From Schmidtea polychroa (Eukaryota), in contig CM097885.1 of NCBI GenBank assembly GCA_044892525.1, positions 248,001 to 312,000 of the forward strand: DNA of 64,000 nucleotides. Direction: 5' to 3'. Below are positions 21,529-43,120 of this stretch, piece after piece (position 1 is the first letter of the stretch; each line of letters opens with the position of its first letter). Below the pieces are notes generated by a model. The model ran no database searches. It saw only the letters and a program-made list of their open reading frames with translations, and had not been told where the DNA came from. The position numbers were made by a program, and so were the translations under genes.

Positions 21529-21617
21529 TTCTATAATTATATATATACATATATTCGTTACTGGTACAGTTTCGTATTTTTATTTACAGTTATTTACATT
21601 GCTATTTTAGGTTATAT

Positions 21618-22145: not shown

Positions 22146-25100
22146 CTATATACGTGAGCTTGGAGGGCGCTGAGCATTCCAGGCCTCCACCCACTGTTCC
22201 TGCTTGATATTACTTGGTCGTTTTACATGATGTTGAAAATTTCTTATTCTGGCCATTTCTAGTTCTCCGCGATGCCGTCTATCTTTGATTATTTTTATTG
22301 TCCCCCCCGTTATGATTAAAAAGGCCCCTGTTATTATTATGCCGCTGATCCACATCATCTGTTTTACGCTTATAATTTCCGCTTTTTCCTTGTTCATTAT
22401 TGTTGATATTGCCTCTGTGCTTTTTAGATTACCGTCTTTGCCATTTCCTTTTATCATTCCTCGTATTCTTGCTATTTCCTCGTTCATACCTTCCTTTGCC
22501 ATTTTTTGTATTTTCTCCATCTCTTCCTCTGATACATAATTGACCTGATATTTCTCACCGGTTTTCTTGCGTTTTCCTTGCTCATCTTTTTCATCATTGA
22601 TTTTTCTTTTCTTCCCTCTTTTCCCAGGGTATCGTCGACATTCTCTTTCTGGACCGTTTCTCAGGATATAGACCGTATATTCCTTTGGTGGTTGTTGTTG
22701 CGTTACGTATTGTAGACAATTTTCTCCTGGTCCTAGCCTTGAAATACACACTTTGTGCTCTTTTCTTGGTTGAAGCTGTGTTATCACTATTTCACCTCCT
22801 TTACTTAGGTGTACCTCTTTCCATTTGACTTTTGTTATTTTCTTCCCGTTTCGATGTTGGTATGCTTCTTGTATTCCCACTTCCGTTATTGGTTCTGCAT
22901 CTTCATTTTTTAACACTAGTCTCTGATAAGCTCTAGACATACATCTTCCTAATATACACCTTTCTTTTAAATCCCATTCCTCTTTTAGATCCCATTGCTG
23001 CTCTTGTACTTGTTTTTTCTTTTCTTGTTTTAGTTCTTCCTCTTTGTTGTCCTTATTTTCCGTTTCTTTGGCTTCTTTTATCGTTCTCATTCCTCCCTGG
23101 GCTGTTATCATTTCCACCATTGTTAATACGAGTATCATTATCATCATATTTGTCTCCATTTCTTTGTTGGTAAAAAGTAGACATACCCTCTGTTTTCCAC
23201 TATTCGTCTTTTCTTCTTGCTTTATTCGGTTTCTCGGGTTATTTTCCTCTTTTTTCCTACTCGCGTCGTTATTTTCTTGATTATTCTCCTCTGATTTCTC
23301 TTTCTCTTTATTCCCGTTTCGACCTTTTTCGTTATTATCGTCGTCTTTATCGTCTTTATCTCCCCCGCTATCGTTTAAAATGTCGTCCTCGACATTTATA
23401 TCATTCAACAATCTGCGGTATGCCGTTAGCACTCTGTTTCTTGCTAATTTTGCTTCGAATTCGAACTCCTTTCTGCCTGTTGCTACATGTCTCTTTCTTT
23501 TCCATTCTTTCACTAATTCTCTTAATTGTATCCGACGATGTTTTCCGATTCGCTTTTGTTCGTTTAGATTCTGCGTGAATTTGAGATCTTCCCTGTTTAA
23601 TACGATCATTATGATTTTTGGAGTTCCTCCTTTTGTTAGTGTATTTTTAACCATAGCATTTTCTCCGTTTTCGTAAAACTCATTTATATTTATTGCATAT
23701 TTATTGCTTTGCGGTATTTTCCATGTTAACAATAACTTCATGGCTTCTAAGCTCATCCGTATCGTGTTCCATTGGAACTGCGACGTGTTTTTACAGATAT
23801 TTTCTACCTCAGTTCTTGTAGCATTTTTACAAATGAATCTAATCATTTCCAAGTTTGGTTGTATTGTTGCCCAATCCATGGCAGAATTTCCTTCGTTTGA
23901 TATTTCGTCAAGTCTCGAACCTGATTGATGTAGTATATGTAAGGTTTTCGGGTGTATCTTTGTTATTGCTGCATACATCATTGCTGTTTCTCCTTGTTCA
24001 TTTTTTGCATTAGATTCTTCTCCCAAGTCTCTAAGAATTCTTATGATGGTTATTGCTCTGTTTTCTTTTGCTGCTAAAATGGCTTGTTGTAATGGTGTTC
24101 TTGAATCTTTTGTTGGTAAGGTGAATGCTAGTGGTATAAATGCTTTTATTTTTCCTATGTCTAGATTTGTGGTCTGGTCTCTCGCGTAGGTGTGTACTGC
24201 TTTTGTTATTTTTGCTAGTATCGCTTCATCGGATAGATCTTGCATTTCTTCAAAGAATACTTCTTTAGCCTTACGTATTACTATCTCTTGGTCGGAGTTT
24301 ATTATCTTTGGTTTACTTGTTGTTGCTATATCGCTTATTATTTGATCGACTCGTTTCTCAGACTCTCTTACTGTTATTTTCTTGATTTTTATCTTTTTCT
24401 TGTTCGAACTGTTAATGCGTTCCTCTGCCGTTAGAACTTGAATAATACTTAGGTAAGTTTCTCGAATGTTATTCATATTTTCCATCATATATAATACACT
24501 CACGGTTTCCCAAAATTTTACTTGTACTTTATCGGTAAATTGAGATATAGCTTTTTCGAAGTCGGTAATTCGTTTTCTGATTAGTTGTTCGTCTTTGTGA
24601 TTTGAGAACTTTATGCCACGTTGTAGTAGTTGATTTGGAATTTCGAATAGGTGATGTCCTCTCATCGCTTCTCTCATCAAGGTGTTTTCTCCTTTGGTAA
24701 ATGTTTCGTTTATATCTACCATATAATCGTTTTTGATCGGGTTCCTCCATGCAATTAGTAATCCAGCAATTGTTATTAATTTCTCTTTGATTGCAGTTAA
24801 TAGCCCGTCATACATGTTTCCTATCTCCCTATTATCCTCGTATGATAATAGATCTACTAAGATTATGAAGGCTTTCGTACTTTTCCCTTCGATTGCATGA
24901 TGTAGTGCATTTTTCTGGTTGTCATCCTGTGTGGTTATCTTTGACCCAGTTTCAAGTAATGCGATAATAATATCTTTAGCTTTATCCCGATTGGCTGCTA
25001 TCATTAGTGGAGTGTAACCTTGGTTGTTTTCTTGATCCGTCGAAATGTTACAGTCGCGAAATGCTTCGATCGTTTCCAGTATTTGTTCATTATTCCCGAC

Positions 25101-28100
25101 CTTTAAAAGTTTGTGCAGCGGTGTATCTCCATAATGGTCTGTGATCGTAAATAATATAGGCCATTGACTTTTTACTACCCTGAGTAATGGGTGTGTTCTT
25201 TCTCGGTTTGCATAGTTTTCGATCATGGTTAGCAGACCTCCCAATATCTCAAAATCTAATCGGTCTTTTGCCCATCCGGGCATTTTAGCTTTCACTTCCT
25301 TTATGATTTTCTCGGCTTCTGATGGTTGTAACCCCAATCGGTTACCTGTTGGTTCGTTTATCTGCTGTAACATATTTATTCTATATGTTTGTGATCTTGT
25401 TGTTAATGTTCGCCCTTCCGGCTGGCTGGTGGCTGTTTTCGGTATTGGCTTACATCGTGCCACATTTACATATATTGGCCTCGTGAAGGGGTTGTTTACC
25501 AATCGTACTCTCACATTGGTTTCTCCGACGAATAAAATCTCATACGGACCTTTACCGTTTCGTTGTAATTTTTTGGTGGTTCCTGGAATTAATTCTGGTG
25601 TTTCGATCATCACCCAATCACCGGTTTGAAATGTATGTTGTTTAACGTTTTTCTTTCTATCATGCAGATCTTTGTAACTTTCCTGATAAAACTTTATATT
25701 TAATCCCGCAGTTTCCCAGATTTCTTGCATTCTTTCCTTGAACTTGGTTACATAATCGTCTATTTCCATGTATTGTGATATTGGTGGCTGATATTCTAAA
25801 TCCATTGGCATATTGCATTCTCTGCCGTACATCAACTTAAACGGACTCATCTTTGTGGACGCGTGAATCGACATTCTGTAAGCCATTAAACATAATTTTA
25901 TATACTCGTCCCAGTCGCGTTGATGGCGATCGACGTAATTTGATAACATTTGAATCAGTGTTCCATTGAATCTTTCTGTCATACCATTAGTTTGTGGATG
26001 GTACGGTGATGTTCTTAATTTTGCGATCTTGAAGTAGTTGGTGACTTCGCTCATTATTTCACTCATGAAGTTTGTTCCTTGATCAGTTAATATCTGTTTT
26101 GGTGTTCCATATCGACAGCATATCTCCTCTACTAGTATTTTTGCGATTGTTCTTGCTTTCTGATCTGCCATAGCGAATGCTTCGGGGAATTTTGTCAAAT
26201 AATCTGTGATTACCAATATATATATATATATATTCCCTCTATCTGATTCTGGTAGTGGACCGACTACGTCCATTGATATCACTGTCATTGGTTCTGCTGG
26301 TACTGGCATTGGCTTTAATGGTGCCTTCCATTTTGTTCCCGTGTTTTTTCTGGTTGCGCAGGTTATGCAATTTTTCACCCATTCCGTTACATCCTCGGTC
26401 AATGTAGGCCAGAAGTATTTTTGTTTCATTCGTGCCAACGTCTTTTTAGATGACATATGTCCTCCGAGTCTTCCGTCATGGTATTGTGTTAGCAGATCTT
26501 TACGTCTATTCTCGGGAATGCACATCAGTCTTTTCTCGCCATCCATTATCAATAACCAATCTTTCTCTATTATATATCGATGTCGATGTTTATCCATGTG
26601 CTCTTTCAATTTTTGATCTTTCTCATATACCTCTACTTTCCCTGTTTTCACATATTCAATGATTTGCTTCAACTCTGTATCCTCTTGTTGGTCTTTCCGT
26701 AATTGGCAAAAATCTAAATCTTCCGCCACCATCAGACATATTCGTTGCATTTCGTGATCTACTAAATCTGGAAAGATAAATCTTGACATACAATCTGCAT
26801 TGGCATTCGCTCTTCCCGCTTTGAATTTTATGAACGGTGAATATTCTTGTAACTGCATTGCCCATCGCATCAATCTACTTGAAGCTTCTTTGTGTTGGCC
26901 AAGCCATACTAGTGGTTGATGATCTGTTGTGATACATATTTCGTGTCCCCATAACAAATATCGAAAATGTTTAATCGCTTGTATAATTGCTAACGCTTCT
27001 CTCTCGGTTACGGAATAGTTTTTCTCATGCTTTTTAAACGTTCTGCTGTAGTATCCAATCACTCTTTCTTTTCCTTCTTCATCCAGTTGTCCTAATATTG
27101 CTCCGGCTGCATATCCACTTGCATCTGTTGCTAATAAGAACGGTTTCTTGAAATCAGGATGTACCAGTATTGGGGCTTCAATTAATTTATCTCGCAATGT
27201 CTCAAATGCTTTTTGTTGTTCTGCACCCCAAATAAATGAAATATCCTTTTTCACTAATTCCTGTATTGGTTTCGCAATACCTGCATAGTTTTTGATGAAT
27301 TTTCGATAATATCCGCATAATCCGAGAAATTCTTGAACTTGGGTGACAGTTTTTGGTGCTGGACATGTTTTTATTTTTTCTATGTTTCTTGGATCTGGTT
27401 CTTTGCCTTTTGCTGACACTATGTGTCCTAAGAACGTAACTTTTTCTTTTGCCCAATCACACTTTGATGGTTTGAGTTTCAATTTCCATTGTCGTAATCG
27501 AACGAACACGTTTCTGATATCTTCCAAATGTTGTTCGAATGTTGCTGAATATATTAATAAATCATCAATATATACCATGCACTGCTTGATCCCGTGCGTG
27601 ACGAAATTCATACATCTCTGAAATGATGCTGGGGCATTGGTCAGTCCAAATGGCATTTTCCTGAATTGATACAGGTCTCGACCCAACGTGAAGGCCGTTT
27701 TCTCCTTGTCTTCCTCTTTAACTTTGATCTGCCAATATCCGCTTTTTAGATCTAAAGACGTAAAATATGCGGCCCCTTGCAGCATAAGTAACATCTCATT
27801 GATGTCTGGTAACGGGTATGTGTCTCTTTTTGTTACTGCATTTAGTTTCCGATAATCGATACAGAATCTCTGGGTACCGTCTTTTTTCTTCACCATGACT
27901 ACTGGAAATTGCCATGGCGAACAACTTGGTTCGATCACTTGTGCATCTAGCATTTTTTGTACTTCTGCTTCGGCTATCTCTTTTTGCTTCTCTGCTAGTT
28001 TGTATGGACGTAGTGCGATTGGAGTTTCGTCTATTAATGGTATTGCGTGTAATGTAACATCGCATGCTCCCAAATCTAAGTCCGAAATAGCGAATATATC

Positions 28101-29945
28101 TTTATATTCTATCAATAATTGTTGAAGTCTTTCTTTTTCCTTTTCCGTTAGCAATGTGCTATCGATTGTCCATAATTCGTCAGCTTTCGTTGTTTCATTG
28201 GTGATTTTTGGTAATTCGATGTCTATCATGGGTGTCAATCTACCCAATCTTTCATTTTCATATATGATCTTGTCTTCTTCCTCGAAATTTGTGATGTTAA
28301 TTGGTATTTCCCCTTCGTCATTAATTGTTATTATTTCTCTTGCTAATGGTAATTCTCGTCGTTTTTCGAATGATTTGCTTGGCTCAAAAATGGCTTCTCC
28401 TTCCATTCCTGCATCCACTTTTATTTGACATATCATCTGGGATTTTGCTGGTACAATTATTTTCTCCGGACATCTGATTATTGCGTTCATTTTGCATATT
28501 CTACCCATTTTATCTTTTAGGCACATTGTTGTTAGATCTATTACTACTTCTTTGAACAATTCCGGCATTAAATCCGTTCCGATTATACATGGTTCACTCA
28601 GTTTGGGTATCACCGCCAGATACGTTTCAATTTCATTATCTTGATATCGTAACGTAGTCCACCATCTTCCTACTACGTCTACGGTTTCTTTACTGCATGC
28701 AATAATATGGATAGTTGTTTGTTCGATGTCTTTCCAACATTTACTGGGTATTTGGTTTATTGCTATTGCTGATACATTTGCTCCGGTATCTATCATTGCG
28801 CTTGTCTCTTTCCCGTTGATTTGGATCATGACTGTTACTGCCGCGCCTCCTGGTGAACTCATTACTGCTATTGTTCTGACGTCATCCGCTTGGTCTACAC
28901 TTTTCGTTCTTCGGGTCGGCATATAGTTCATACCTGGTTGACTTGGTAACTGTGGATACATATTTTGTGTCATGGTCAAAGCTGTTTGTTGTCCAACGAT
29001 ATCTGGTGGTATATAACTTCCGTTGGCTATCCAGGTATTCGTTTTTTCTTTCTCCCAAAATGGTGCTGTTTCTATTGGCTTTTCATTCGGGTTTCTACTT
29101 GGATATGGATATTTGTCATTCCCATTGTCGTCATCATCACTATCGCTGCTGTTTGATCGATTTCTAAATCTGTCTAAAAATTTTGGTTTGTTCTTTTTCA
29201 GTTGTGTCCTTGTTGCTTCATCATACATTGTTTTCCGAAATCGTCTACCGACTTCCTCGTCAGTCCCTTTTATTTTTGTCAGTATTTTTATTAATCGTTT
29301 TATTCTGTGTATATCTTTAGAATGACCGTGTAACACCATTGTTTTTGCCAAAAATGGTAGAAAACCTACTATCAACTTCCAATTTACTTTCTTTTCTCTC
29401 TTATAGATATCGAAACACGCTAACATTTGAGTCAATATTACTCTGACAATCTGAATAATTAAGATGATTCCCAGTATTCCTGCCATCATTTGACCGAACA
29501 CTAGAAATCTTCCCCACATTGCTTTCATCATGTTTGACGTGGCTTGTTGAAAATGATCGGGTGACAATAATAGTTCGTAATTGGGACCTGATTGGAAATT
29601 CGTTCCCCCAGTTATGGTAACCATATTTGATAGAATGGATTCTCGCCTTGCTGGGAATAGTACGTTTAGTCGTGCCGTTTCTAAATCCTCTGCTGAGTAC
29701 ATACCTGCTTTTGACACATCAATTGGTTTGAAATCTTGCTCCGTTGCGAGTTCTATTAATCCAAACTTTTTAGGCTCTTGTACTTCGGTTTTTACCGGTA
29801 ACATTATCCATTTCCCATCGGGTTTTTCATATAACGGTCCGTATGCATTTGAACAGTTGAAGGTGTTCGGATAAAATCCAATTGGGTTCATAATTCTAGT
29901 GACGGGTTGAACGAATCTGTTTTGCCCTTTGTAACTAATTTCCAA
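22146..29945 (-). CDS. pol: Polyprotein part 2: Env C-terminus/TM - aspartic protease - RT - RNase H - integrase - ankyrin repeats - C-terminal membrane protein
   Basis: IDTGA (28782-28790), YIDD (27561-27572), TDASG..YSVTEREALA..TDH, HHCC + D,D,E + GPY. Ankyrin motifs (GDTPLH, GYTPLMIAA, KNALHHAI, RTPLQQAI, GETAMMYAA, GNSAMDWA) at ~23600-25170. Hydrophobic segments at ~23100-23147 and ~22290-22357. Confidence 0.95.
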   Translation of the reverse strand: MEISYKGQNRFVQPVTRIMNPIGFYPNTFNCSNAYGPLYEKPDGKWIMLPVKTEVQEPKKFGLIELATEQDFKPIDVSKAGMYSAEDLETARLNVLFPARRESILSNMVTITGGTNFQSGPNYELLLSPDHFQQATSNMMKAMWGRFLVFGQMMAGILGIILIIQIVRVILTQMLACFDIYKREKKVNWKLIVGFLPFLAKTMVLHGHSKDIHRIKRLIKILTKIKGTDEEVGRRFRKTMYDEATRTQLKKNKPKFLDRFRNRSNSSDSDDDDNGNDKYPYPSRNPNEKPIETAPFWEKEKTNTWIANGSYIPPDIVGQQTALTMTQNMYPQLPSQPGMNYMPTRRTKSVDQADDVRTIAVMSSPGGAAVTVMIQINGKETSAMIDTGANVSAIAINQIPSKCWKDIEQTTIHIIACSKETVDVVGRWWTTLRYQDNEIETYLAVIPKLSEPCIIGTDLMPELFKEVVIDLTTMCLKDKMGRICKMNAIIRCPEKIIVPAKSQMICQIKVDAGMEGEAIFEPSKSFEKRRELPLAREIITINDEGEIPINITNFEEEDKIIYENERLGRLTPMIDIELPKITNETTKADELWTIDSTLLTEKEKERLQQLLIEYKDIFAISDLDLGACDVTLHAIPLIDETPIALRPYKLAEKQKEIAEAEVQKMLDAQVIEPSCSPWQFPVVMVKKKDGTQRFCIDYRKLNAVTKRDTYPLPDINEMLLMLQGAAYFTSLDLKSGYWQIKVKEEDKEKTAFTLGRDLYQFRKMPFGLTNAPASFQRCMNFVTHGIKQCMVYIDDLLIYSATFEQHLEDIRNVFVRLRQWKLKLKPSKCDWAKEKVTFLGHIVSAKGKEPDPRNIEKIKTCPAPKTVTQVQEFLGLCGYYRKFIKNYAGIAKPIQELVKKDISFIWGAEQQKAFETLRDKLIEAPILVHPDFKKPFLLATDASGYAAGAILGQLDEEGKERVIGYYSRTFKKHEKNYSVTEREALAIIQAIKHFRYLLWGHEICITTDHQPLVWLGQHKEASSRLMRWAMQLQEYSPFIKFKAGRANANADCMSRFIFPDLVDHEMQRICLMVAEDLDFCQLRKDQQEDTELKQIIEYVKTGKVEVYEKDQKLKEHMDKHRHRYIIEKDWLLIMDGEKRLMCIPENRRKDLLTQYHDGRLGGHMSSKKTLARMKQKYFWPTLTEDVTEWVKNCITCATRKNTGTKWKAPLKPMPVPAEPMTVISMDVVGPLPESDRGNIYIYILVITDYLTKFPEAFAMADQKARTIAKILVEEICCRYGTPKQILTDQGTNFMSEIMSEVTNYFKIAKLRTSPYHPQTNGMTERFNGTLIQMLSNYVDRHQRDWDEYIKLCLMAYRMSIHASTKMSPFKLMYGRECNMPMDLEYQPPISQYMEIDDYVTKFKERMQEIWETAGLNIKFYQESYKDLHDRKKNVKQHTFQTGDWVMIETPELIPGTTKKLQRNGKGPYEILFVGETNVRVRLVNNPFTRPIYVNVARCKPIPKTATSQPEGRTLTTRSQTYRINMLQQINEPTGNRLGLQPSEAEKIIKEVKAKMPGWAKDRLDFEILGGLLTMIENYANRERTHPLLRVVKSQWPILFTITDHYGDTPLHKLLKVGNNEQILETIEAFRDCNISTDQENNQGYTPLMIAANRDKAKDIIIALLETGSKITTQDDNQKNALHHAIEGKSTKAFIILVDLLSYEDNREIGNMYDGLLTAIKEKLITIAGLLIAWRNPIKNDYMVDINETFTKGENTLMREAMRGHHLFEIPNQLLQRGIKFSNHKDEQLIRKRITDFEKAISQFTDKVQVKFWETVSVLYMMENMNNIRETYLSIIQVLTAEERINSSNKKKIKIKKITVRESEKRVDQIISDIATTSKPKIINSDQEIVIRKAKEVFFEEMQDLSDEAILAKITKAVHTYARDQTTNLDIGKIKAFIPLAFTLPTKDSRTPLQQAILAAKENRAITIIRILRDLGEESNAKNEQGETAMMYAAITKIHPKTLHILHQSGSRLDEISNEGNSAMDWATIQPNLEMIRFICKNATRTEVENICKNTSQFQWNTIRMSLEAMKLLLTWKIPQSNKYAININEFYENGENAMVKNTLTKGGTPKIIMIVLNREDLKFTQNLNEQKRIGKHRRIQLRELVKEWKRKRHVATGRKEFEFEAKLARNRVLTAYRRLLNDINVEDDILNDSGGDKDDKDDDNNEKGRNGNKEKEKSEENNQENNDASRKKEENNPRNRIKQEEKTNSGKQRVCLLFTNKEMETNMMIMILVLTMVEMITAQGGMRTIKEAKETENKDNKEEELKQEKKKQVQEQQWDLKEEWDLKERCILGRCMSRAYQRLVLKNEDAEPITEVGIQEAYQHRNGKKITKVKWKEVHLSKGGEIVITQLQPRKEHKVCISRLGPGENCLQYVTQQQPPKEYTVYILRNGPERECRRYPGKRGKKRKINDEKDEQGKRKKTGEKYQVNYVSEEEMEKIQKMAKEGMNEEIARIRGMIKGNGKDGNLKSTEAISTIMNKEKAEIISVKQMMWISGIIITGAFLIITGGTIKIIKDRRHRGELEMARIRNFQHHVKRPSNIKQEQWVEAWNAQRPPSSRI

Positions 29946-32900
29946 CTCGTTTGCGCATTTCCCTGGTGGTATTGTGGGTTTTCTTGGCAGTCGCGCAAAC
30001 GTCTTGGTACATACATTACCTCTCCCACCATTCTACCAAAATGTCCATCCGGTAACGGGAGTGATGGCATTGTGTTATCTGGGTGTGTTATTGCGATGGC
30101 TAATTTTGTTTTTAGTATCTCTTTATTCAATGAACAGTCATTTTGTATAAGATCGTAGTATACTTTTTGCATTGTCGTTTGTCCTCGATGAAATAAAAAG
30201 TCCATTTTGTTGTTGGCATAAAGGTACAACTTCACGTCCTCCGTTGATACTTTTCCTACTGCTCGGTCTATTACTTGCCTTGACATGTAGATACCTGCGT
30301 AGTTCGTCCGATATACTATGCTGTCACATTCGGTGGTCTCTTTTTCTCTGATGAATCTCATACCGATATCTGGATCATCTGTAATTAATGCCGTTGGTGT
30401 TTTTTGTGTTGTGAGTCTCTTTTCTTTGGGGGATGGTGGAACTGGTTTCCCATTTCGCATCCTTACGTTTCCATTCTCTTCATCGTCATCCTCGTTTTCG
30501 TAAATTTCTCCTTTTACTTCATTGAATAGAGCACTTTTTAACAATTGGAGTCGGCATTTTTGGGTGTTAGCTTCATATATTATAGTCGAAATTCCCGTTC
30601 TACACACGTTTTCCGTAGCTCTGCATGCTGGGTTGGTTTTCATTTGATAGTTGTTTGCGTCGAATTGTGCTTCGTATTCCTTCAACTCCACTGTGTAGGA
30701 CTCAATTACTACTACTCCCGAGATCACTTCTCCTCTGATCGTATATGTGCCTCCGTTACATGATCCATCAGTTGATTTTACTCGTCCGGCTACATAGATA
30801 CTTTCCGTCTTGATCATTCCGCTTTGTCCGTGTATTGTTACTCCATCCCTGATTCTCATCGCTCCGGTTCTAAAAAGCTCTTTACAGTCTTCCCGTTGTA
30901 TAGGTACTATTTCTTTATCTAATCCAGGTAATATGAGAGTTGAATACGAATATTGTCCACAGTAATATGCCAACACTTTCTTCGATACTACGCATTCTCT
31001 AGCTTGCGTCCTAATGAAATCTGATTCTTGGTATACGTGATAGGAGACTTTCTTTTTTACTATATCTAATTTATTCGGAGATGCCTGTCTACATTCCTCT
31101 ATATCTCTCAGGGAGTATCTTTCTCCTATTATTGAATTGTCACAGTCGTAAATTGTAAATCCAGCTGCTCCACTGGTGCAGAGCATCCATATCATCATGG
31201 TCATCATTAGTGAATTAATCGACGCTTTTCTGCTGGCTGGGTCTTTCAATGGCAATTCCCATTCCAGTTCGTTTAGCAATTTCTTCAACCGAATTTGCAT
31301 CGATCTCTCTTGCTCGTTTTTTCGTGGCGCTTGTATGAGTCTTTTCCACCCACCGGCACGGATAATATGTGGTTCGATTGTATTTTCAATGATTGTAACG
31401 GTCATTTCTACATGATTTGCGAATTGTTTGTTAGGTATTTTCCTTGCTGCTAATCCCATCAAATTGTACATTAGATACGTTAATACTACTAAATGATGTT
31501 CGTCGTCGTTTGCGTTTAAAGTTAATTGTTCAATTACCCTTCTTGTCTCTTCCCAATCGGTTTTAGTGGTTTTTGTCTTCTCTTTGATTAATTTCGGAAT
31601 TATTCCGGATATTGTATTCCATAGCTGTCTGGCATCTACGCTTGCTACTTTTCGTTGCCATAACCGTCGCAATTGTGGGTTCGTTATTATTAGCATATCT
31701 TTTACTAGCTCTCGTATCCATTTTTCGCCTCTTTCGATTGTTGGCTGGGCCTCTTTCAGATCCCACACTATTTTATCCAGTTTCTTCAATCTGACTTGTC
31801 CTTGTTCTTGTTTCAGTTGTTCTCTGGTTTTAAATTCTGGTTTTTCTCCTTGCTTCTTGGGTCTTCCTTTTGCCCGTTTCTCCATCATTGTTCCAGCTTC
31901 TCTTGTCGTTTCATAATTCGGGTTTCTCTCGTTATCTGTTCTTGGCAATGAGCTATCGTTGTTTCTCAGCCACTCATTCCATTCGTCTATTATTTTGTCC
32001 GTTTGACCTTCTGGTGTTGCTTTCGTCGGTCCTTTTGGTCGTTGGAATTGTTCGTCGGTTTCGGTTTCTGTTGTATTATCGATAATTTCCTCTATGTTCA
32101 GCTTATTTGGTTGTTGATAGCTAGTTGACGGTTGGCTTGTTGTCCATATTTCGGCTCCTGTCGGCCATCTTACCAGAATTGGTGATCTTTCTCCAGCTCC
32201 TTCATCGCTGTCTTCTAATATGATTTCCTCGATTTCCTCGGTTTCATTCGATTTACTCGCCACTTTGTTAGGGCTTGGTGTACTCAAGCTACCTTTCGTA
32301 GTTTTGCTGGATTTGCTCTTCCTTTTAATCGGTTTTCCCAATGTTTCTGCCATTGTCAATACATTGATCTCCCCCAATCTCATGGGTGTTATTCCGACAT
32401 CTGCATTATCATCTAACGATTTTCCGAATAGTTGTAGGTGAAATGGAGTTTCGTATGCTAACTTCTTTTTTAACTCTCTGATCTTTGTTGTTGGATGTAC
32501 TTCTATATCCTCAATGCTTTTGTCGGGATACTTGACTCGGATACGATACCTTTCCTGGGTATCTTGTGCCCATTCTTGGTTTCTCCATTTCCTAATAATT
32601 TGTTCTAGCTGTTCTGGGTACCATTCGTTATATTGTCGGTATTCCTCAATCGCTTTCGCCATTTCTCTTAGATTGTGGATATTCTCTGATGTCTTTAGGA
32701 TGATGTTAGCCAATGCTACTACTTGTCGTTTTTGATTTTTTGTTCCCGTTGCTAAGATGTCACCTAATTGTTTATATCTTTCCTTCTCTTCTCGTTCTCG
32801 AGCTTCCATCGCTTCTTCGCTGTCCATATCGGCATATTCGCGTTCCTTCTTTCTCATCGCATGAATATGTCTGGTTTCCGTTTCACTTTCGGACGTGACG

Positions 32901-35900
32901 TCCGTTTCGCTTTCCTCGTCCGATACCGGTTCTTTCTCTTCCTCTTCGTATTTTGGAGGTTCGTCTTCCTCTTCTTCTGATTTACTTTCGGTCTCGCCAA
33001 TGTCTGTTTCTACGAAAATTCCTTTCCTGACTTCCCACTCTTTATTTTCCGCATTCCACATCCTTTCCCAGGGAGTTCGTCTGCAAGATCTAGTACTTAG
33101 TTTCTTTATTTTTCCTTGTAGTTCCTTTTCCTTTAACCACTGTTGATGAATTTCAATTATCTCTACTGATTTTTGGTATAGCGTTTTCATCCTGTCCCGT
33201 ATCTCTTTCTGGTAGGTTACATCTCTTGTTCGGAATTCGTCCATGGGCAATATTCTAATTATTTGATGATTATCCCACATTCCCATTTCGCTTAACGATG
33301 TGTCGTCTTCAGCCCGTAATATTATTTTATCGTACATCATGACTACATCATCTATCATCCCGTCGCTACTCTCGCTTCGTACTTTTTCCGTTATCTCTTG
33401 GTTTATCTTGGTTACTAAGTCATCCACCGTACTCTGATTACTCATCTTTATTCGTCGTTTCTCCTCGTTTGGTAACCATATGGTTATTTCTAATTTCTGC
33501 GGTTGCGTTTCTTTTAATCTTCCGTATTTGTGGATCAAATTTATGGTTCTCCAATCGCTCATCCTGAGCAATTCTGTATCTCGTAATCGGCTCATTAGTT
33601 CATGCATATCTGGAGTTCGTCTTGCTATGAGTAAATCCCAGTTATCTTCGACTTGTTCTTGAATTTGTTTGATTAGTTTATCTAGATTCCGCCTTAAAGT
33701 GCATTGTTTTATTTGTTCCAATTTCAGCTTGATATTGAAATCGTATTCAGCCTTGGCGTCTTTAGCCCATTCATGAACATTAGTTGGTTGCTTCTCTTTA
33801 TGCAACTTCAATATTTGAGTTTCTCCTGGCCAGATCAATGCATCTATTAGGTGCATGTCTGGCTTAATTTGTTCTCCTTGGTATTGATATAAATACTCTT
33901 TCTTTCTCGAGCTGCCCAAATGTTCTCTTATCCAATCGAAAAGATCGTCTGTAACTGTATTTTTTATCCATATTCTCTCGAGTCCTTTACTCGTTCCGAT
34001 TTTATTACGTATTTTTTCCATATACTTCTTTATTATCGCTTTCTCCTCGCTTGGTATTAAATCTTTTTCGTTTCTTTCCAGTTTCATTATCTTTTGTATG
34101 AAGCGTCTGTATGGTATGATGTCAATGAAATCCTGGTTTCTTACCACCACTGGAAGTATTTCTTTTACTTGTTTTATCGCCTCTTCTTTTTCCTTTCTCA
34201 GTTTCATCTCGATATTCTCATCTTCACTTTCGCTTGCCACATCGCTTTCACTTTTCTCCTCATCTTCTCCGATCTTTTTCTTTAGTTGTTCGATATTTTC
34301 ATTTAACTGCAATATTTCTCCACCCAGGCTACTCACATTATCCTCATCGTCATCTGTTGACAATACCTTCTTTGTCGTCCTCATCATATTAATTCGTAAA
34401 TTCCTCATCCTTGGTACTTTCTTTAGCTTCTGGTTCTCGAATATCGTTAGCTCCTCTGAGTCTAATTCTTGTATCATATTATGATTTAGATGATTAATCT
34501 GCTTCTCATTTTCGTTATTTTCCGCTTCTACTCCGGTTTTGATTTTCTCGTGTTCCTTTTCGATTTTATCTTTTATCTTTTTCCAGAATATTTTCTGAAT
34601 TCTCTGATTCCCTTTTAATGGTGTTGTTGGGTTTTCCTTTTTCGCTTCTGTAATCGTTTCTTTCGGTGTCTCTGGTTCGATCAATGGGACTACTCTTGGA
34701 TTTTTCCCGTAATTGTAACAATATTGCTCTTTTATCTCCTTTACCATCCTCATCATATTTATTCGTAATGGTTGTTCTTGTCGCTGCTGAATTCGCTCTC
34801 TTTTTATTCTCTCTTCCTCAGCTTGTAGTCTCTGCCATTCTTGTGCATGTTGTTGTACTTCATAATTGTTAAGATTCTCGGTGCTCCTCATCAGGCGTAT
34901 ATTCTGAGTTTGTTGTGGTACTGGTTCTTGTCTTGGCCTCATCATTTGTTGCATCATTTGTTTCATTTGAGAAATTTCTTGCATCACATTCATTTGTTTT
35001 CCCTCACTGGGGTTACTTTGTCGTTGCGGATTTGGTGCATAATTATTGTTTCGTTGTGGTGGTCGTTGTTGTTGGCCCCTTTCTCGGCAATCTCTTGAGA
35101 TGTGACCTGGCTGACCGCAGTTAAAGCATCCTCTCAACTGGCATATATTTTCCGTGTGTCCTCGTCGTCCGCATCTATTACAATTTGCGTTTCGGTAACA
35201 ATCTCTGTACCAATGTCCTGGTTTACCGCATGTTCGGCATTGTTTGTTATCGTTCGTATTTCGTCGATTATTAAAATTATTTCCATTGTTCGAGTTGTTG
35301 CGTTCGCTGTTATTCCCGTTTGATCGTCCTTGCGGTGGTTTGAAAATTTGATGCGCACCTGGTATAAACTGATTCATCTTCGGTTCATGATTATTGTTAT
35401 CTCCATTTTCTGTTTTCGCCGTAGCTGCTGCGATTCTTCCCTCCTCTTGCATGACATTCATTTGTGCCGGGAGGTGTAGTTCGCATCTTGTGGCCCAATC
35501 TATGGCCTCCTCTAGTGTTTTACACATCTGACATCCCACCGAGGCTCTTACCTCTTCCCGGCGTAGTCCTTCTATGAAATAACCAATTAGGTTCTCTTCC
35601 GGCAAGTTTCCGTTCATGGCCTTCGTTGCCAATCTTCGCAATTCGCTTGCGTATAACGTTATTGATTCATTGGCTCTTTGTTTTCTACTCGCTAATTCTC
35701 CTAGGGCTTGATTTATTGGTTTGCTGGCCCCGAATGTTTTTCTCAAAAATGTTTTGATGTTTTCCCAATTGTCTAATTTCGTATTTCTTTCTTTTGCTTC
35801 TAGATACACTTCGAGTGCGCTATCGCACAAAAACAGAGGCATTCGTTTACTAATTGCTTCCGCTGTCCATCCGCACACATCGATATAGACTTCAAAATTT

Positions 35901-35992
35901 GTTATGAACGTTGCCAACTTGTTCGCATTCCCGTTAAACGGTTCGCCTCTAAATTTTTCTTTATACTCGTCGGTTTTTACCACATTCATCAT
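29888..35992 (-). CDS. gag: Polyprotein part 1: Gag (capsid, 3 CCHC knuckles) - ubiquitin-like domains - Bcl-2-like domain - envelope glycoprotein ectodomain
   Basis: Retrotransposon capsid motifs (PFNG..F..F..GW..L..SA..W..F..RKQ..ESI..Y..FIEGL) and three CX2CX4HX4C at 35087-35239. The frame stays open without an ATG up to ~36415. Env-like part starts after the hydrophobic MMTMMIWMLCTSGAAG at 31207. Confidence 0.9.
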   Translation of the reverse strand: MMNVVKTDEYKEKFRGEPFNGNANKLATFITNFEVYIDVCGWTAEAISKRMPLFLCDSALEVYLEAKERNTKLDNWENIKTFLRKTFGASKPINQALGELASRKQRANESITLYASELRRLATKAMNGNLPEENLIGYFIEGLRREEVRASVGCQMCKTLEEAIDWATRCELHLPAQMNVMQEEGRIAAATAKTENGDNNNHEPKMNQFIPGAHQIFKPPQGRSNGNNSERNNSNNGNNFNNRRNTNDNKQCRTCGKPGHWYRDCYRNANCNRCGRRGHTENICQLRGCFNCGQPGHISRDCRERGQQQRPPQRNNNYAPNPQRQSNPSEGKQMNVMQEISQMKQMMQQMMRPRQEPVPQQTQNIRLMRSTENLNNYEVQQHAQEWQRLQAEEERIKRERIQQRQEQPLRINMMRMVKEIKEQYCYNYGKNPRVVPLIEPETPKETITEAKKENPTTPLKGNQRIQKIFWKKIKDKIEKEHEKIKTGVEAENNENEKQINHLNHNMIQELDSEELTIFENQKLKKVPRMRNLRINMMRTTKKVLSTDDDEDNVSSLGGEILQLNENIEQLKKKIGEDEEKSESDVASESEDENIEMKLRKEKEEAIKQVKEILPVVVRNQDFIDIIPYRRFIQKIMKLERNEKDLIPSEEKAIIKKYMEKIRNKIGTSKGLERIWIKNTVTDDLFDWIREHLGSSRKKEYLYQYQGEQIKPDMHLIDALIWPGETQILKLHKEKQPTNVHEWAKDAKAEYDFNIKLKLEQIKQCTLRRNLDKLIKQIQEQVEDNWDLLIARRTPDMHELMSRLRDTELLRMSDWRTINLIHKYGRLKETQPQKLEITIWLPNEEKRRIKMSNQSTVDDLVTKINQEITEKVRSESSDGMIDDVVMMYDKIILRAEDDTSLSEMGMWDNHQIIRILPMDEFRTRDVTYQKEIRDRMKTLYQKSVEIIEIHQQWLKEKELQGKIKKLSTRSCRRTPWERMWNAENKEWEVRKGIFVETDIGETESKSEEEEDEPPKYEEEEKEPVSDEESETDVTSESETETRHIHAMRKKEREYADMDSEEAMEAREREEKERYKQLGDILATGTKNQKRQVVALANIILKTSENIHNLREMAKAIEEYRQYNEWYPEQLEQIIRKWRNQEWAQDTQERYRIRVKYPDKSIEDIEVHPTTKIRELKKKLAYETPFHLQLFGKSLDDNADVGITPMRLGEINVLTMAETLGKPIKRKSKSSKTTKGSLSTPSPNKVASKSNETEEIEEIILEDSDEGAGERSPILVRWPTGAEIWTTSQPSTSYQQPNKLNIEEIIDNTTETETDEQFQRPKGPTKATPEGQTDKIIDEWNEWLRNNDSSLPRTDNERNPNYETTREAGTMMEKRAKGRPKKQGEKPEFKTREQLKQEQGQVRLKKLDKIVWDLKEAQPTIERGEKWIRELVKDMLIITNPQLRRLWQRKVASVDARQLWNTISGIIPKLIKEKTKTTKTDWEETRRVIEQLTLNANDDEHHLVVLTYLMYNLMGLAARKIPNKQFANHVEMTVTIIENTIEPHIIRAGGWKRLIQAPRKNEQERSMQIRLKKLLNELEWELPLKDPASRKASINSLMMTMMIWMLCTSGAAGFTIYDCDNSIIGERYSLRDIEECRQASPNKLDIVKKKVSYHVYQESDFIRTQARECVVSKKVLAYYCGQYSYSTLILPGLDKEIVPIQREDCKELFRTGAMRIRDGVTIHGQSGMIKTESIYVAGRVKSTDGSCNGGTYTIRGEVISGVVVIESYTVELKEYEAQFDANNYQMKTNPACRATENVCRTGISTIIYEANTQKCRLQLLKSALFNEVKGEIYENEDDDEENGNVRMRNGKPVPPSPKEKRLTTQKTPTALITDDPDIGMRFIREKETTECDSIVYRTNYAGIYMSRQVIDRAVGKVSTEDVKLYLYANNKMDFLFHRGQTTMQKVYYDLIQNDCSLNKEILKTKLAIAITHPDNTMPSLPLPDGHFGRMVGEVMYVPRRLRDCQENPQYHQGNAQTSWKLVTKGKTDSFNPSLEL

Positions 35993-37270
35993 GACTGGTT
36001 CTTGTAACTCTATTGTTTCTTTTAAATTTTCCAGCGGTGTCGCTAAATTATGGACGGATAATTCTTCTGTTGACCCGGTTAGGTTGTTTGATATATCGGA
36101 TAGGCTTTCTCTGCTTCTAGATCGACTAGGGGTGTATCCGAGGTTTTCTTGGTCAAATGTTGGTACTTGATTTGTTCTTTTTGCTCCTTGTGATCTTCCT
36201 CTTTGCTGTTTTATGGATCGTCCTCTTCTGAGCTGTTCTAGTTCGTCTCCTGAAATTAATACGTCTCTCGACTTACTTGAGGATCTGAGATTCAGTTTCT
36301 CCGTGGTTCCTTTATACGCCTCTCTATCGTCTCTTAAGGGTTTCTCGGCAATTATCGGCTGCTGACTTGAGCGAATTCGGTTTTGTCGGTGTTCCGAGTC
36401 CTTGGCAATTGGTTGTTAGCGTTATGAGACGTCTTCCGTTCTTGGAATCTTCGGGTTGTGTTACTCCTACTGAGCGGGTTCTGGATTGGTTATTTCTAGT
36501 TGGTCGTTGATTTCTTCGAATTCCTTTGTGCAGGTTCTGGATTGGCTTGATTGACTGGATTGGTTTGGTATCTAAAATGAAAAAATGATCTCGTGTTGCA
36601 TCTGCTCACACGACTTCATCATTCTTTCTTCAACATTCAAACACAGACACCGTTTAGGGCCTCTGTTATACTTCTCCTTATTTCCCCATACAATTTCTCG
36701 TGGATTATAGTCACCCATCAACCCATAGTTTTCGTCGATTTTAAATTATCTATTTAGGGTAGTAATAATTATCTATATGGTCGTATGAATCATCTATAAT
36801 TATCATTTATAATATCGATAGGTCGTTGTCAGTTACTGCTTATCACCCCCCATATTCTCTTAATCCTTTTACGCGGTTCCGCTATTTTACTTAATCTTTC
36901 GTCTCTGTTCCCCTTCACTCGGTTCTACTCTGAACCAAAAAAAAAAAAAAAATCGGATTCGTTTATCCGGTTTAAACCAAAATTCTGTAGACTTTTGTCT
37001 ACTTACTTGGGATCCCCTTTAATTAATTAATTACCTTCCTTTTTACTCGTCATTTATTCCCACTTATTCTCTACTTTTACTATCTCTTCAATTCATTTTC
37101 CTTTTCTGATTCTCCTTTTCTACTAAAAGGGTTTTACTTTCATCTTCTACGAGCTCGTTTAATCCTTTCTAAATTCGACTTCTCGTATCCCAATTCAATT
37201 TGTTTCTAGCTAGCTTAATATTCTATCTCATTATCAACTTAAATATTATCCAATCATTTTCTAGGCCTTT

Positions 37271-37625
37271 ACGACTGGCTGGCACTTTTCAACAGCTCAA
37301 TCTTCTTCCTTCTGACCGGTTGGACTATTCGACAACTCGATCTTACGACTGGCTGGCACTATTCAACAGCTCAATCTTCTTCCTTCTGACCGGTTGGACT
37401 ATTCGACAACTCGATCTTACGACTGGCTGGCACTATTCAACAGCTCAATCTTCTTCCTCTCCAAACTGGCTGGACTTTTCACAGCTCAGTTTTTAATTTT
37501 TTTTCCTGACCGGCTGGACTTCTCGACAGCTCGGCCTTAATATCTCCCGACTGGCTGGACTTTTCACAGCTCAGTTTCAATTTCCCTGGCCGGCGGGACT
37601 ATTCAACAGCTCGGCCTTAATATCT
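37271..37625. repeat. Tandem repeat in the 5' leader (74-bp unit built from ~35-39 bp subunits)
   Basis: ACGACTGGCTGGCAC.. recurs at 37271, 37345 and 37419; degenerate (C/T)GGCTGGAC..TTC.ACAGCTC subunits continue to ~37625. Confidence 0.9.
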
Positions 37626-38198: not shown

Positions 38199-38678
38199 TT
38201 AACTGAAGTAAATCGTGTGCTTCTCCTTTATTGCACATACACATAAAGAACAATGCGTTAAACTGACGGCGCATTCGTCGCAATGGCTAAGGTGTCCACA
38301 AGGTAGCATTAGAATTCTGGCAGGTCGCGTCTTACAAATGTTACAAGTTCTCAAGGCCGCTGCTTTTTCTATTATCGAGGTTCGTATTCTCTGAGATAGA
38401 GTTTTTACTTGTTCGCGTATTTTCACATATTCGAGGTTCAGAGCGGGGTCGTCGAGTCGTTGCTGCATCCATTGGTAATGGACAGACAAGTCGGTGTCGG
38501 TATTTGTTGACCCCAATCTGTCGGTTAGAAAGTTTTGTTTGGATATCAGCGGTGCGTTGTGGCGTTGTTGCTCTAGGGTTTCTATTTGTTGCAGTTTTTC
38601 TCTTAACGTCTTTATGGAATCGTTTTCTATGTCGACGAACCGGCTTAGTCGTTGTAGATGTTTCCTAGCTTCTGACAT
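38199..38678 (-). CDS. Coiled-coil + C-terminal IAP-type RING finger protein, upstream of gag
   Basis: CNIC..ARILMLPCGHLSHCDECAVSLTHCSLC..IKEKHTIYFS* matches the C-terminal RING layout and aromatic tail of IAP-like ligases; no BIR domain; acceptor TTTTTTAG 2 nt before the ATG. Confidence 0.85.
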   Translation of the reverse strand: MSEARKHLQRLSRFVDIENDSIKTLREKLQQIETLEQQRHNAPLISKQNFLTDRLGSTNTDTDLSVHYQWMQQRLDDPALNLEYVKIREQVKTLSQRIRTSIIEKAAALRTCNICKTRPARILMLPCGHLSHCDECAVSLTHCSLCVCAIKEKHTIYFS

Positions 38679-39087
38679 ATCTAAAAAAGTATGTTGTCAT
38701 TACTCGGTCTCACTTATAAAAATAAAAATAATATTATCGTGTTATAATCAATGTTCGTTTGGCTTTGTTCGCTATTGTTTCTAGTTTATGTATTTTATTC
38801 AATCTCTAATAATTCTTTTTTAATTTAATTCATTTAAAATTAAACAAAATTAGTCAATTCCCATTTTCTCTTCTCTTCATATTCAATCACATTCATTCAA
38901 ACTTATTTAGGTTCGTTTTTGTTCATAGCATGTTCTATTTTACGCAAAGACAGTTCGCATCATCATCTTAATACACTATAATATCAATTCATTTCAGTCC
39001 CGATTCCCTTTTTTATTATAATTAATTAAATTGTTAGTCTAACACATCGTAATACAGTAATAGGCAATCAAACAATTCGAAATCACA

Positions 39088-39105
39088 ATCCCGGCTGAGC
39101 CCCCA
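39088..39105 (-). promoter_or_regulatory. Primer binding site complementary to tRNA-Pro 3' end
   Basis: Minus strand TGGGGGCTCAGCCGGGAT, 16/18 identical to the classical tRNA-Pro PBS TGGGGGCTCGTCCGGGAT; 7 nt from the 5' LTR. Confidence 0.85.
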
Positions 39106-39112
39106 AAAATCA

Positions 39113-42100
39113 TGTTGGCGTATGTGGGGAAAGAGAAAATATGCCCACCTGATCATCATACATCCCAAGTACTCTCTTCCGCTCCGATACTTCCCATACA
39201 TACTCCAAAATGATCAAATACATATTCCCACGTATGAGCCCGTGGTGGTGTTCCACGTTGGTGCTGCTCACACGGGTTGGAAAAGGTTAGCAGGTGAGCC
39301 CCTGCCTTAGGACTACTCCTAACCCTTTCTCGGTTCGGGTTCCATGGTGCCATAGAAGGTCTTACCCGTTTCTTCGCTCCTAATTCAGTCCAACCCTGGT
39401 CCAAAGGGACGACATTTGCGCTCGTACTATGTCTCCAGGAGCACCTTTTACTCAAATCAACCACAGCAAATCACACATACCATGAAAAAAAAAATCAAAG
39501 ACTTCAAACAGTTGTATTAAAGAGAAACATAAAAATACATTCACCATTAATTAAATAAGAACAAAACATCAAAGGTCATGTACAGGATAACGTCAACTTC
39601 TCCGAGTTCCTTCATACCGCACAAAGATTGAGACAAATGAGAAAAAGGAATTCATTACGAAAACACTTCTCCTTCTGCGATCATTTCGTCAATGTCGACG
39701 GGCAACCGGCGATCTTCGAGGAATTTGATGACGTCGGCCGGAACTACCCGAAATACTTCTTTCGTAGGGATAGAATGGGTGATTGTAATTTCCTTGATCG
39801 TCGATTTGGCTGCAGATAACGATGCCTCGAGCGCAGAAGAGTTTTCTCAGCAGTTGTAGGAGTAGTCATCTAAAGAATGAGAAGTCCTTTATTTACATCA
39901 TTAAAATCCTTTCTACTATTTGTTTTCTTTTTATCGTGAGCTTTATCCTGCCACATGTGCATACAATCAGGATTGTCCCCCACATCCATACCTTTGACAT
40001 CACTTAACTCATCCAAACCGTAAACCTTCAAATCAACTCATCATATCGTTCGTAAGGAAGAAAAAAAAAATGAGAACCATCACACGTTATTTCTCTACCC
40101 ATATTGATATTGTACCTAGGTTCCTGGGTCGACAGTTATCATCTAATCGCAATCAGTTACTCCTTACCACTAATATATTTTTTCACTTTTATTTATTATG
40201 ACCCATTGAAGGTGTGTCTACTCCCTTGCTATTATGGCTTATTGAGTTATGCCTGCTTTAATTTAGAAGAAGTAGTTCCATGCTGTTGATGCATTTTTGC
40301 GCTGTGTTAGGTTAAAACGAATGTGTTAAAAATTATTGTAAGTATTAATTTCCCCCATAAATTATAATTTAATTATTTAAATTTTCGCATTTTATGTTGT
40401 CATAACGACGCATATTAGTATGTAGTTGTGTACTGGTTTCAGACTCTACCTGATGTGCGCTAATGTGTATTATTTAGTTTTACTCAATTATCGCTGTCCT
40501 CTCTTAGCAAATTCTAGACATTGTGTCGGTTAGTGTACTTGATCTCGTCGCTTATTTATGCATGCCTACGGACACATGCTACTATGACGCAATGATGATG
40601 TCGACTCACTCACGTCCCATGTATTAGTGGATTTATCTGTGTGTGGGTTTGGGTCTGCTTATCTCAGTTATAACATTATTAGCAGATGGGCTAGACGAAC
40701 GGAAGATAAGGAGTCAGACTTATAGAAATAACGATTGTTATGATTTCAAGATGGCCTAAATCTGTTATCGGGTAGCAAATGGATTTAATTTCTATCTCTC
40801 TCGTGAATGTTGACTATTCTCAAAAACCTAATCGTTTCATCGACTTGGCGCAAATCGTTCCACAATCGAACCGCTGGAATATTTTATCTACGCTACTTGC
40901 CTCTCTGCAATAGTCGTTTCTCGATCAGATGGAAAATTTATTGATAATTTGTTCGGAATGGTCGATGAAAATTTCCTTTAGGACTGTAGTAAGTGCTTAT
41001 GATTAATTAGAACTTTGCTGTTTACTTTCCTGTCAGGACGAATCCTTATCGATGACAGTAGCTAATCGAAGGTTGATAACTAAGTCTCCTACTCGTCCAA
41101 TAACATATCACCGCGACGGGTTGAATCGCTAACGTTCTCTTAATTTATCAATTCTTGGAAATATAGAATGCTCCAGATTTTTTATCATTCATCAAGAAAA
41201 CGAAAATGGACGTTAGAATTATCAGTGAGGTTCGAGAATTTCATTACCCTCAAGGATAGTCGGTGTTCATATTCTGACGAAAAGAAGTCACCTAGCTCTA
41301 AATTGAATATGGCCGAACTCAAACTCGGATTAAATATCGAGAAATGTCGTCAATCTCCTAGAATTTTCAGTCAGCACGTTGTCGGCATCGAAACAGTATC
41401 GCTCAGAAGTTTCCTCAATCGAAAGTTTGCGACGGCTAATTCTCCAGATAGCACTCGATGAAAGGATCATTGACTCGATTCGTTTTCTCTCACAGGGTTT
41501 CCTCACCCCTCACAACCCACCCAAGGACAGTACGCATTTCTGCCCACTGCCCTTGGACCGTCGTGAAGGACAACTCGACCCGACTTATCTCAAATCCTTC
41601 TCCAATAAATGTGCAATTAATAAATTCATATATGATCAAACAAATATGGGAATAATGAAATTAAAAGAAAAATCAAATAAATAAATGTTTACCTGGCGGC
41701 CACGCCAGCCGGATTCCGGGTATGATGACTCTTGCTAACGTAGGTTTTTACATTCATTTAGCAATCATTGTAATACTAATATCCATGTAGATACTTGGCT
41801 GGTTCGGTCAGTGCAATTTCTGAGTATTCATATTCATAAGCTCTCTCTGAAAATGCATACGTAATTTAGCCGCATCATACCCGAGCTCCAGAGGACGTCG
41901 TCGCCAGCATCATAGAGAGAAAGCAACATCTTTTGGTTTTAAATATAAATTTTATTGAAAAATAAAACGTCTTTTGATATTAAATTCATAATAAACATTA
42001 AAAATATCATACTAAAATTCAAAACATAATTTACCAAAATTCTCCGAAGGTGTTGAGATTGAAATCAAAGTCTTGTAAATTTTTCCTTAACGTTTTATTC

Positions 42101-42807: not shown

Positions 42808-43120
42808 GTCCTATCCTAATCCCCCTACCTTTTTTACCCCAAGTTATTTTATTTATGATACTATTCATTATTTAGGTATCTTCATCAATATTATTGTTTA
42901 GTAATTATAATATAATAAATTCTTTCGGGTTTTCCTAATTTAATTTTCTTTTAGATATCTTTTTGGCATTATATTTATTAAAAGCTTGACCATCCGAAGT
43001 GGTTTTTGGCGCGTTTAAAAAGTCCCCTTATTTGTTTTATTTTTAATTGTCTTGTCCCTTATTTTTGCCTTCCTGTGGATGCTGCTGTGTGAGCTGTACG
43101 ACTGAAAATGACAATAAATA

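Follow-up and report, generated by a model that had tools for sequence, protein, structure and literature searches.

A giant Ty3/gypsy element of the planarian Schmidtea polychroa with a chuvirus-like envelope glycoprotein between Gag and protease

The insect errantiviruses gypsy and ZAM carry their envelope gene (env) as a separate 3′ open reading frame (ORF), express it from a spliced mRNA as a class I, baculovirus F-like protein, and are presumed to infect the germline from the soma. In the planarian Burro/GYPSM1 elements, for which Arkhipova and Yushenova 2019 (PMC6431247) cite Grohme 2018 and Jurka 2007, env was reported in frame between gag and pol, in elements of more than 30 kb whose ORF1 of 4,873 amino acids (aa) contains a Gag with three CCHC knuckles, together with MATH_TRAF_C, SUMO/ubiquitin-like, BCL-2, ankyrin and BIR domains. 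According to an eLife paper of 2026 (PMC13524379), GAG-ENV-POL "errantiviruses" with an ENV of herpes simplex virus (HSV)/gB type occur in Platyhelminthes, Nematoda and Bryozoa, six elements of Schmidtea mediterranea being listed, and chuvirus-like glycoproteins also adjoin gypsy pol genes in arthropods; the capture of a chuvirus glycoprotein by mosquito BEL/Pao elements was reported by Dezordi 2020 (PMC7642597), which is also cited in PMC13524379. Here we analyse a 64,000-nucleotide stretch of the Schmidtea polychroa genome (assembly GCA_044892525.1, contig CM097885.1, positions 248,001 to 312,000 of the forward strand), hereafter the window, in which an initial annotation made from the letters alone had placed a chuvirus-like envelope glycoprotein inside a retroelement polyprotein, at 29330..31207. 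With a probability of about 0.8, we read window positions 12796-42807 as one young copy of a giant Burro-like Ty3/gypsy endogenous retrovirus, in which a chuvirus-type class III env is embedded in a single polyprotein between Gag with accessory domains and protease, reverse transcriptase, RNase H and integrase (PR-RT-RNaseH-IN). The gag-env-pol fusion, which the initial annotation treated as new, was already in print (PMC6431247, PMC13524379), from 2019 for the Burro/GYPSM1 family and from 2023/2026 for flatworm GAG-ENV-POL elements generally.

The envelope glycoprotein, its carrier and its reading frame

The env module occupies 29331..31207 on the minus strand, as do all features of the element described below, and was delimited by matches to Pfam family PF24664 (Monjiviricetes fusion glycoprotein), hydropathy, an AlphaFold model of an open sister copy and fold searches. 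All motifs first noticed in this region, namely MMTMMIWMLCTSGAAG, FTIYDC, YSLRDIEEC, YYCGQYS, GEVMY, CANELEISY, AGMYSAEDL and WGRFLVFGQMMAGILGIILII, could be found in the minus-strand translations. The start given for the module, 31207, is exactly the first Met codon of the signal-like peptide, whereas the end, 29330, lies one base beyond the short, conserved hydrophobic tail helix of env (29375-29331, by hydropathy). In the window copy, the best PF24664 stretches listed had E 4.1e-39 for the N-half (profile 3-208) and E 5.9e-26 for the C-half (profile 395-579). In a sister copy that is naturally open, the env (600 aa, signal peptide through membrane anchor) matched the same family in two stretches with 246.3 bits over a cut-off of 27 (E 5.9e-73), the best stretch being profile 244-571 of 653, and no other Pfam family was found on it at E up to 1, including the baculovirus F-like family. 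Chance cannot account for similarity of this degree.

A HMMER search of 1.84 billion representatives returned 996 matches at E up to 1e-3; the best 20 or so were long proteins or fragments with 29-47% identity, and the rest were stand-alone glycoproteins of about 650 aa with 20-27% identity. Residue 1 of the env module aligned with residues ~4-25 of these stand-alone forms, indicating, since their N-termini align at the internal signal peptide, that a whole viral ORF is embedded here. In an alignment of 100 sequences, 14 cysteines were at least 90% conserved (C22, C39, C72, C83, C108, C150, C195, C202, C218, C294, C358, C403, C421 and C455), and all of them are present in this env. Hydropathy placed a signal-like stretch at the N-terminus (predicted signal peptide, 31207-31160) and a 32-aa transmembrane helix towards the C-terminus (predicted, 29507-29412); the signal-like stretch is preceded by basic residues and has the hydrophobic core MMIWMLC and the small residues A-A-G ahead of the predicted cut.

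The AlphaFold2 model of the open sister env, built on the 100-sequence alignment (pLDDT 89.8, pTM 0.67), is beta-rich with a central helix of 48 residues (327-374). By sequence, this env had no match below E 1 among PDB chains, so that its relation to herpesvirus gB came to light by fold comparison only: gB was the top Foldseek match in PDB (E 1.9e-14, TM-score ~0.41), and all 50 entries shown by VIA-align were herpesvirus gB (Z 7.0-9.9 over ~390-440 residues). Against the viral structure database BFVD, chuvirus or chu-like glycoproteins ranked first (E 1.3e-38 to 1e-35, TM-score 0.52-0.69), among them those of Tacheng tick virus 4 (G protein, E 1.3e-38, TM-score 0.66), Wenling crustacean virus 14 (TM-score 0.69), dermapteran chu-related virus 142 and soybean thrips chu-like virus 4. 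The chuvirus-like identity originally proposed for this protein is thus upheld by the PF24664 match and by the best structural matches in BFVD, and the structural comparison suggested at that stage returned both gB and chuvirus G; the predicted model makes the env a chuvirus-type (Monjiviricetes) fusogen of class III with a gB-like fold.

Self-blastn of the window revealed direct repeats at 12793-17040 and 39110-42807, and reading of their ends delimited a complete long terminal repeat (LTR) element of 30,012 bp (12796-42807) with TG..CA ends. The 5′ LTR (39113..42807; 3,695 bp) starts with TG and ends with CA on the element strand, and the 3′ LTR (12796..17040) includes an additional segment of 551 bp (13518-14068). 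Over 3,696 aligned columns there are 6 mismatches and 3 gap columns between the two LTRs (99.8% identity), and this near-identity indicates a young insertion. The extra segment, either lost from one LTR or gained by the other, has no second copy elsewhere in the window. A directly readable target-site duplication, GGAC, flanks the element (upstream copy 42808..42811, downstream copy 12792-12795), and a candidate primer-binding site beginning with TGG, recognised from its sequence without a matched tRNA, is found 7 nt past the 5′ LTR (39087..39105). The Pfam families follow the order PF03732, PF00098, PF00077, PF00078, PF17917, PF17921 and PF00665 (gag, CCHC, PR, RT, RNase H and IN), and no BEL/Pao-type family was listed among the Pfam matches of the polyprotein frames. 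With its LTRs, TG..CA ends, short target duplication, CCHC gag and PR-RT-RNaseH-IN order, the carrier is a Ty3/gypsy (Metaviridae) LTR retroelement, and the placement of env between Gag and protease of a gypsy lineage, as first annotated, is borne out by this domain order, the LTRs and the 4-bp duplication.

In the window copy the polyprotein is distributed over two open frames, the first (29888..36415; 2,175 aa) running from Gag to the N-terminal two-thirds or so of env and the second (22146..30032; 2,628 aa) from the C-terminal third of env to a C-terminal hydrophobic helix. Pfam located Gag (Retrotrans_gag) at 35839-35558 and three CCHC knuckles at 35239-35087, followed by two ubiquitin-like stretches (33493-33242 and 32551-32351; E 0.017) and, just upstream of env, a Bcl-2-like stretch (31507-31337; E 0.13), these last being under the Pfam threshold. 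Downstream of env follow the protease (28832-28557), RT (27893-27417), RNase H (27230-26841), integrase with H2C2 and core domains (26519-25995) and ankyrin repeats (25076-23835).

In its normal state, this polyprotein is not divided. A protein search of the 781-Mb genome with the env of the naturally open copy gave 2,837 candidates, 73 of which were scored; env was free of stops in 68 of the 73, and in 38 it was part of an open frame 4,700 aa or more in length, most frequently 4,811 aa, the polyprotein frames of sister copies ranging from 4,731 to 4,817 aa. A DNA search of the same genome gave 628 candidates, of which the 40 scored were 95-100% identical, with matches on four numbered contigs of tens to hundreds of Mb. 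The size of this genome, its AT-richness and the element itself would all be in keeping with a dugesiid planarian. When 12 loci of 4.9 kb (the window copy and 11 others) were aligned, all 12 were colinear with identical env junctions, and 3 of the 11 other loci were open across all 4,886 nt. The stop-free envs and the long open frames among the scored matches establish that the normal state is a single Gag-accessory-Env-PR-RT-RH-IN-Ank reading frame, ~4,700-4,800 aa long in intact copies.

Selection on env and its possible role in expression and spread

Among the 12 aligned copies, env is under very strong purifying selection, with a constraint at least equal to that on pol. Mean pairwise Nei-Gojobori counts of nonsynonymous (dN) and synonymous (dS) differences gave dN 0.0157, dS 0.1801 and dN/dS 0.087 for the upstream 500 aa, and dN 0.0090, dS 0.1435 and dN/dS 0.062 for the tail with PR and RT. 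For env itself the values were dN 0.0033, dS 0.0737 and dN/dS 0.044, to be read with the caveat, which counts against our interpretation, that the 12 copies are the best DNA matches to the window env, so that the env dS is lowered (0.074 vs 0.14-0.18 in the flanks) though the ratio is not obviously so. From the low dN/dS it follows that most differences between copies date from lineages that were replicating under constraint on env.

The most likely scheme would be the following. The internal signal peptide, on leaving the ribosome, would direct the nascent chain to the endoplasmic reticulum (ER), where host signal peptidase might cut after ...TSGAAG and release the Gag part into the cytosol, while the Env ectodomain would pass into the lumen. 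The 32-aa transmembrane helix would then stop transfer, leaving Pol on the cytosolic side and tethered to the membrane by the Env tail until the element's own protease frees it. Env trimers might subsequently enable particles to fuse with other cells and enter them, as in a passage out of differentiated tissue into stem or germ cells. BURRO1 RNA was reported to be enriched in the intestine by fluorescence in situ hybridization (FISH) and de-repressed after smedwi-2 RNA interference (RNAi) (PMC8532177), and an Env of this kind would let an intestine-expressed element reach stem or germ cells.

Several further points weigh against or qualify this reading. Cleavage, membrane insertion, particles and fusion are predictions from the genes, and the window copy, with a frameshift in env, is unable to make Env-Pol. 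The 600-aa env module contains one N-glycosylation sequon, few for a viral surface glycoprotein, and its single K-E-K-R site lies within an acidic loop of low model confidence. The transmembrane helix is followed by a second short hydrophobic stretch, LIVGFLPFLAKTMVL, that recurs in relatives; were it to cross the membrane, Pol would end up on the lumenal side, contrary to the proposed topology. Retroviruses do not usually produce Gag, Env and Pol at 1:1:1. An env or env-pol mRNA made by splicing may also exist; among the junctions of four contig-type runs over 22000-40000 no leader-to-env joint was listed, a result uninformative on splicing or expression, and one run, guessed to be RNA (X1), contained two joints ending near 39086-39088 with short 26-nt sides and non-canonical ends.

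It is also conceivable, though in our view unlikely, that env has been retained without any extracellular infection, serving to tether the polyprotein or its assembly to the ER or to fuse cells without free particles, while the element spreads only as a retrotransposon within stem and germ cells. Purifying selection indicates that env has a function but not which one, the in-frame position forces Env to be equimolar with Gag and Pol, as would suit a structural or tethering role, and the single sequon points in the same direction. However, the entire class III ectodomain is conserved, including the 14 family-wide cysteines and the long central helix, and the env has its nearest counterparts among the entry proteins of exogenous chuviruses.

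The reading of an infectious, envelope-bearing element could be extended in a more speculative direction, which we put forward tentatively and consider less probable than not. The Gag-Env-Pol precursor might be a polytopic polyprotein of the ER membrane that host signal peptidase cleaves at the conserved internal signal peptide, as in flaviviruses and pestiviruses, and that possibly bears a second, C-terminal signal/anchor module, with Env moving the element from PIWI-poor differentiated cells to stem or germ cells. If this were true, the element would be a retrovirus-like agent that expresses its membrane proteins in the style of an RNA virus.

Relatives, origin and the break in the window copy

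The gag-env-PR order recurs beyond the window, as the initial annotation had suggested looking for, in the 12 colinear copies and in database polyproteins whose env is only 29-42% identical. Among 13 long database relatives scanned for domain order, env-PR-RT-RNaseH-IN was contained in one protein in 4 and env followed by protease in 4, gag or CCHC stood upstream of env in 3, env was found alone in 3, and one (P0121) had immunoglobulin domains fused to the PF24664 glycoprotein. In two diverged relatives (P0005 and P0007), env is followed by two aspartic proteases: a DDI-like one adjoins the Env tail, and a retroviral one comes next. By eye, a signal-like hydrophobic stretch ending in small residues directly precedes the [YF]DC motif in at least 9 of 10 diverged embedded envs, the printed stretch of the tenth (P0013) stopping ahead of that motif, and several of them keep a GGW (BH2-like) motif upstream. 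After the transmembrane helix, a tail motif W-K/R-L-x-x-G-x-x-P-x-L-x-K, often with Cys-Cys, is present in P0004, P0006, P0009, P0012 and P0015; this motif may form a second span, or else a helix that is interfacial or palmitoylated, a point that bears on the topology of Pol. In an unrooted FastTree phylogeny of 128 env regions, the window family grouped within 16 rows at 100% local support, and long polyproteins made up 13 of these rows. Judged by these sequence comparisons, the gag-env-pol order with an internal signal peptide appears to be an old and conserved architecture. The capture may have been independent of that by mosquito BEL/Pao elements.

As the tree has no root, a well-supported branch with the retroelement-embedded envs on one side of it is compatible with gene flow in either direction, including the reverse one, in which retroelements of this clade were the source of the G gene of chu-like RNA viruses. 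We regard this as quite improbable, given that stand-alone forms of ~650 aa make up by far the larger and more diverse share of the 996 matches, although this is not decisive.

Still less probable, and to be given very little weight, is that the env came into this copy from elsewhere, as an endogenous chuvirus fragment with no relation to the element or as a nested mobile element. Chuvirus-derived glycoprotein insertions are common in arthropod genomes (PMC7642597, PMC10084718), but neither direct nor inverted repeats flank env here: a search for terminal repeats over 28300-32300 gave only matches of 14-22 nt, as expected by chance. Moreover, the env junctions are identical in every one of the aligned copies, env is in frame with its neighbours in most of the scored copies, and the same domain order occurs in relatives with much diverged env. 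A separately inserted element with its own ends, which had been named at the outset as what would overturn the annotation, is therefore not what is found, as flanking terminal repeats are absent, the copies are colinear and the order is shared by relatives. A recent nested insertion of env is refuted, and an ancient capture is what the best explanation, that of an env-bearing Burro-like element, assumes.

The division of the window env between two reading frames, at which the initial annotation hinted only by a slash in its motif list (GEVMY/C), is confirmed, and its cause is a frame-shifting gap of 10 bases. In the alignment of the 12 copies, the window copy is short of these bases at ~30012/30013 (30012..30013) relative to all 11 others, and a genome-wide search for the 36-nt junction across the gap found a single occurrence in the 781-Mb genome with up to 1 mismatch allowed. 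The two-frame split is thus a lesion private to this copy, not a design. That it is a programmed ribosomal frameshift within env, which the 145-nt overlap of the frames (29888-30032) and a nearby 15-nt inverted repeat (29942-29956 / 29993-30007) might suggest, has next to no probability and is refuted for both the -1 and +1 types, as the gap occurs in 0 of the 11 other copies, whose frame with the 10 bases runs uninterrupted across the site, the window junction is unique in the genome, and env lies within long open frames in 38 of the 73 scored matches.

Accessory genes, surroundings and comparison with known systems

Near the C-terminus of the polyprotein, hydropathy marked a second signal-like stretch, METNMMIMILVLTMVEMITAQ (23159-23097), and, about 250 aa further on, a hydrophobic helix, MMWISGIIITGAFLIITGGTI (22358-22296); the region between them is strongly charged with several cysteines, and Pfam had no match for 23159-22296, which might give the precursor a second membrane module. 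Outside the polyprotein, the 2.7-kb leader contains a small accessory ORF (38199..38696) with a C3HC4 RING finger (PF13920, E 1.8e-8), and a downstream ORF (20140..21579) encodes a TRAF-like RING with MATH/TRAF (PF21355, E 8e-25; PF22486, E 8.7e-25; PF00097, E 9.9e-5). Three further downstream ORFs (17296-17970, 18015-18776 and 18884-19927) had no Pfam match at E up to 0.01. The RING, RING+MATH, ankyrin, ubiquitin-like and Bcl-2-like parts look like mimics of host apoptosis and ubiquitin pathways.

The giant retroelement is located among DNA-transposon copies. Its flanks contain Maverick/Polinton-like genes at 389-2305 (-), 48450-50850 (+), 52001-54634 (-) and 61110-63725 (+), where three ORFs encode protein-primed DNA polymerases of the B family (PF03175, with E as low as 6.7e-32) and an endonuclease VII motif is present in two of the three (53651-54634 and 61110-63725); a packaging ATPase resembling A32 and an integrase of the rve type are also encoded. 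Short tandem repeats form long arrays at 3279-4700 and 57755-58876, with periods of 9, 12 and 15 nt within minus-strand ORFs at 2976-4084 and periods of 21-22 nt and 144 nt near 57.7-58.9 kb.

Compared with insect errantiviruses, the element shares an env carried by a Ty3/gypsy element, but the env lies 5′ of pol and in frame with it, matches PF24664 only at E up to 1 and has a gB-like predicted fold, and so is not of the F type. With herpesvirus gB it has in common an overall fold of several domains that includes a long central helix (Foldseek E 1.9e-14, VIA-align Z 9.9), at 10-12% identity and with no sequence-level match to any PDB chain; partners of gH/gL type are not evident here. With the G proteins of Chuviridae/Jingchuvirales (PF24664) it shares family and fold, at ~20% identity and TM-scores of 0.6-0.69, and a common cysteine pattern. 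In the mosquito case the carrier is BEL/Pao, whereas here it is of Ty3/gypsy type with env fused in frame between gag and pol.

The flatworm elements described in PMC13524379 likewise have a Ty3/gypsy pol and a gB-type class III env ahead of pol, although at ~14.5-18 kb they are smaller than the 30 kb found here. The six partial ENV sequences of S. mediterranea printed there are visibly homologous to the window env by eye, and, again by eye, none is identical to the window family, element 5 being the nearest-looking.

The closest resemblance is to Burro/GYPSM1 as portrayed in PMC6431247. Both exceed 30 kb with LTRs, have an ORF of ~4,800 aa (4,873 there; 4,731-4,817 here) and occur in thousands of copies; both have a three-CCHC Gag, ubiquitin-like and Bcl-2-like parts upstream of env (sub-threshold here), an in-frame env placed after Bcl-2 and before PR, ankyrin repeats, and domains of MATH/TRAF and RING type. 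By size, ORF length, env position and accessory domains, as compared with the published description, the window element belongs to the Burro/GYPSM1 family. It differs in that MATH/TRAF is encoded in the separate downstream ORF at 20140-21579, not in ORF1, and that no BIR, dUTPase or in-ORF MATH domain, known from GYPSM1, was matched by Pfam in the polyprotein at E up to 0.01. In addition, PMC6431247 tied the env to gypsy Env by HHpred (96.7%), whereas here only PF24664 was matched and the predicted fold is class III and gB-like.

What the present locus adds to these descriptions is that the env is, by its predicted fold, class III and chuvirus-like, not gypsy-F-like, that it is constrained with a dN/dS of 0.044, that its two-frame look is a private lesion, and that relatives with no more than 29-42% identity in env retain both the internal signal peptide and the gag-env-pol order. 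The arrangement is a striking one, in which a fusogen of negative-strand RNA virus kind is carried by a retrovirus-like element and Gag, Env and Pol are translated as one chain, and these additions render the infectious-provirus hypothesis for the giant elements of planarians more testable.

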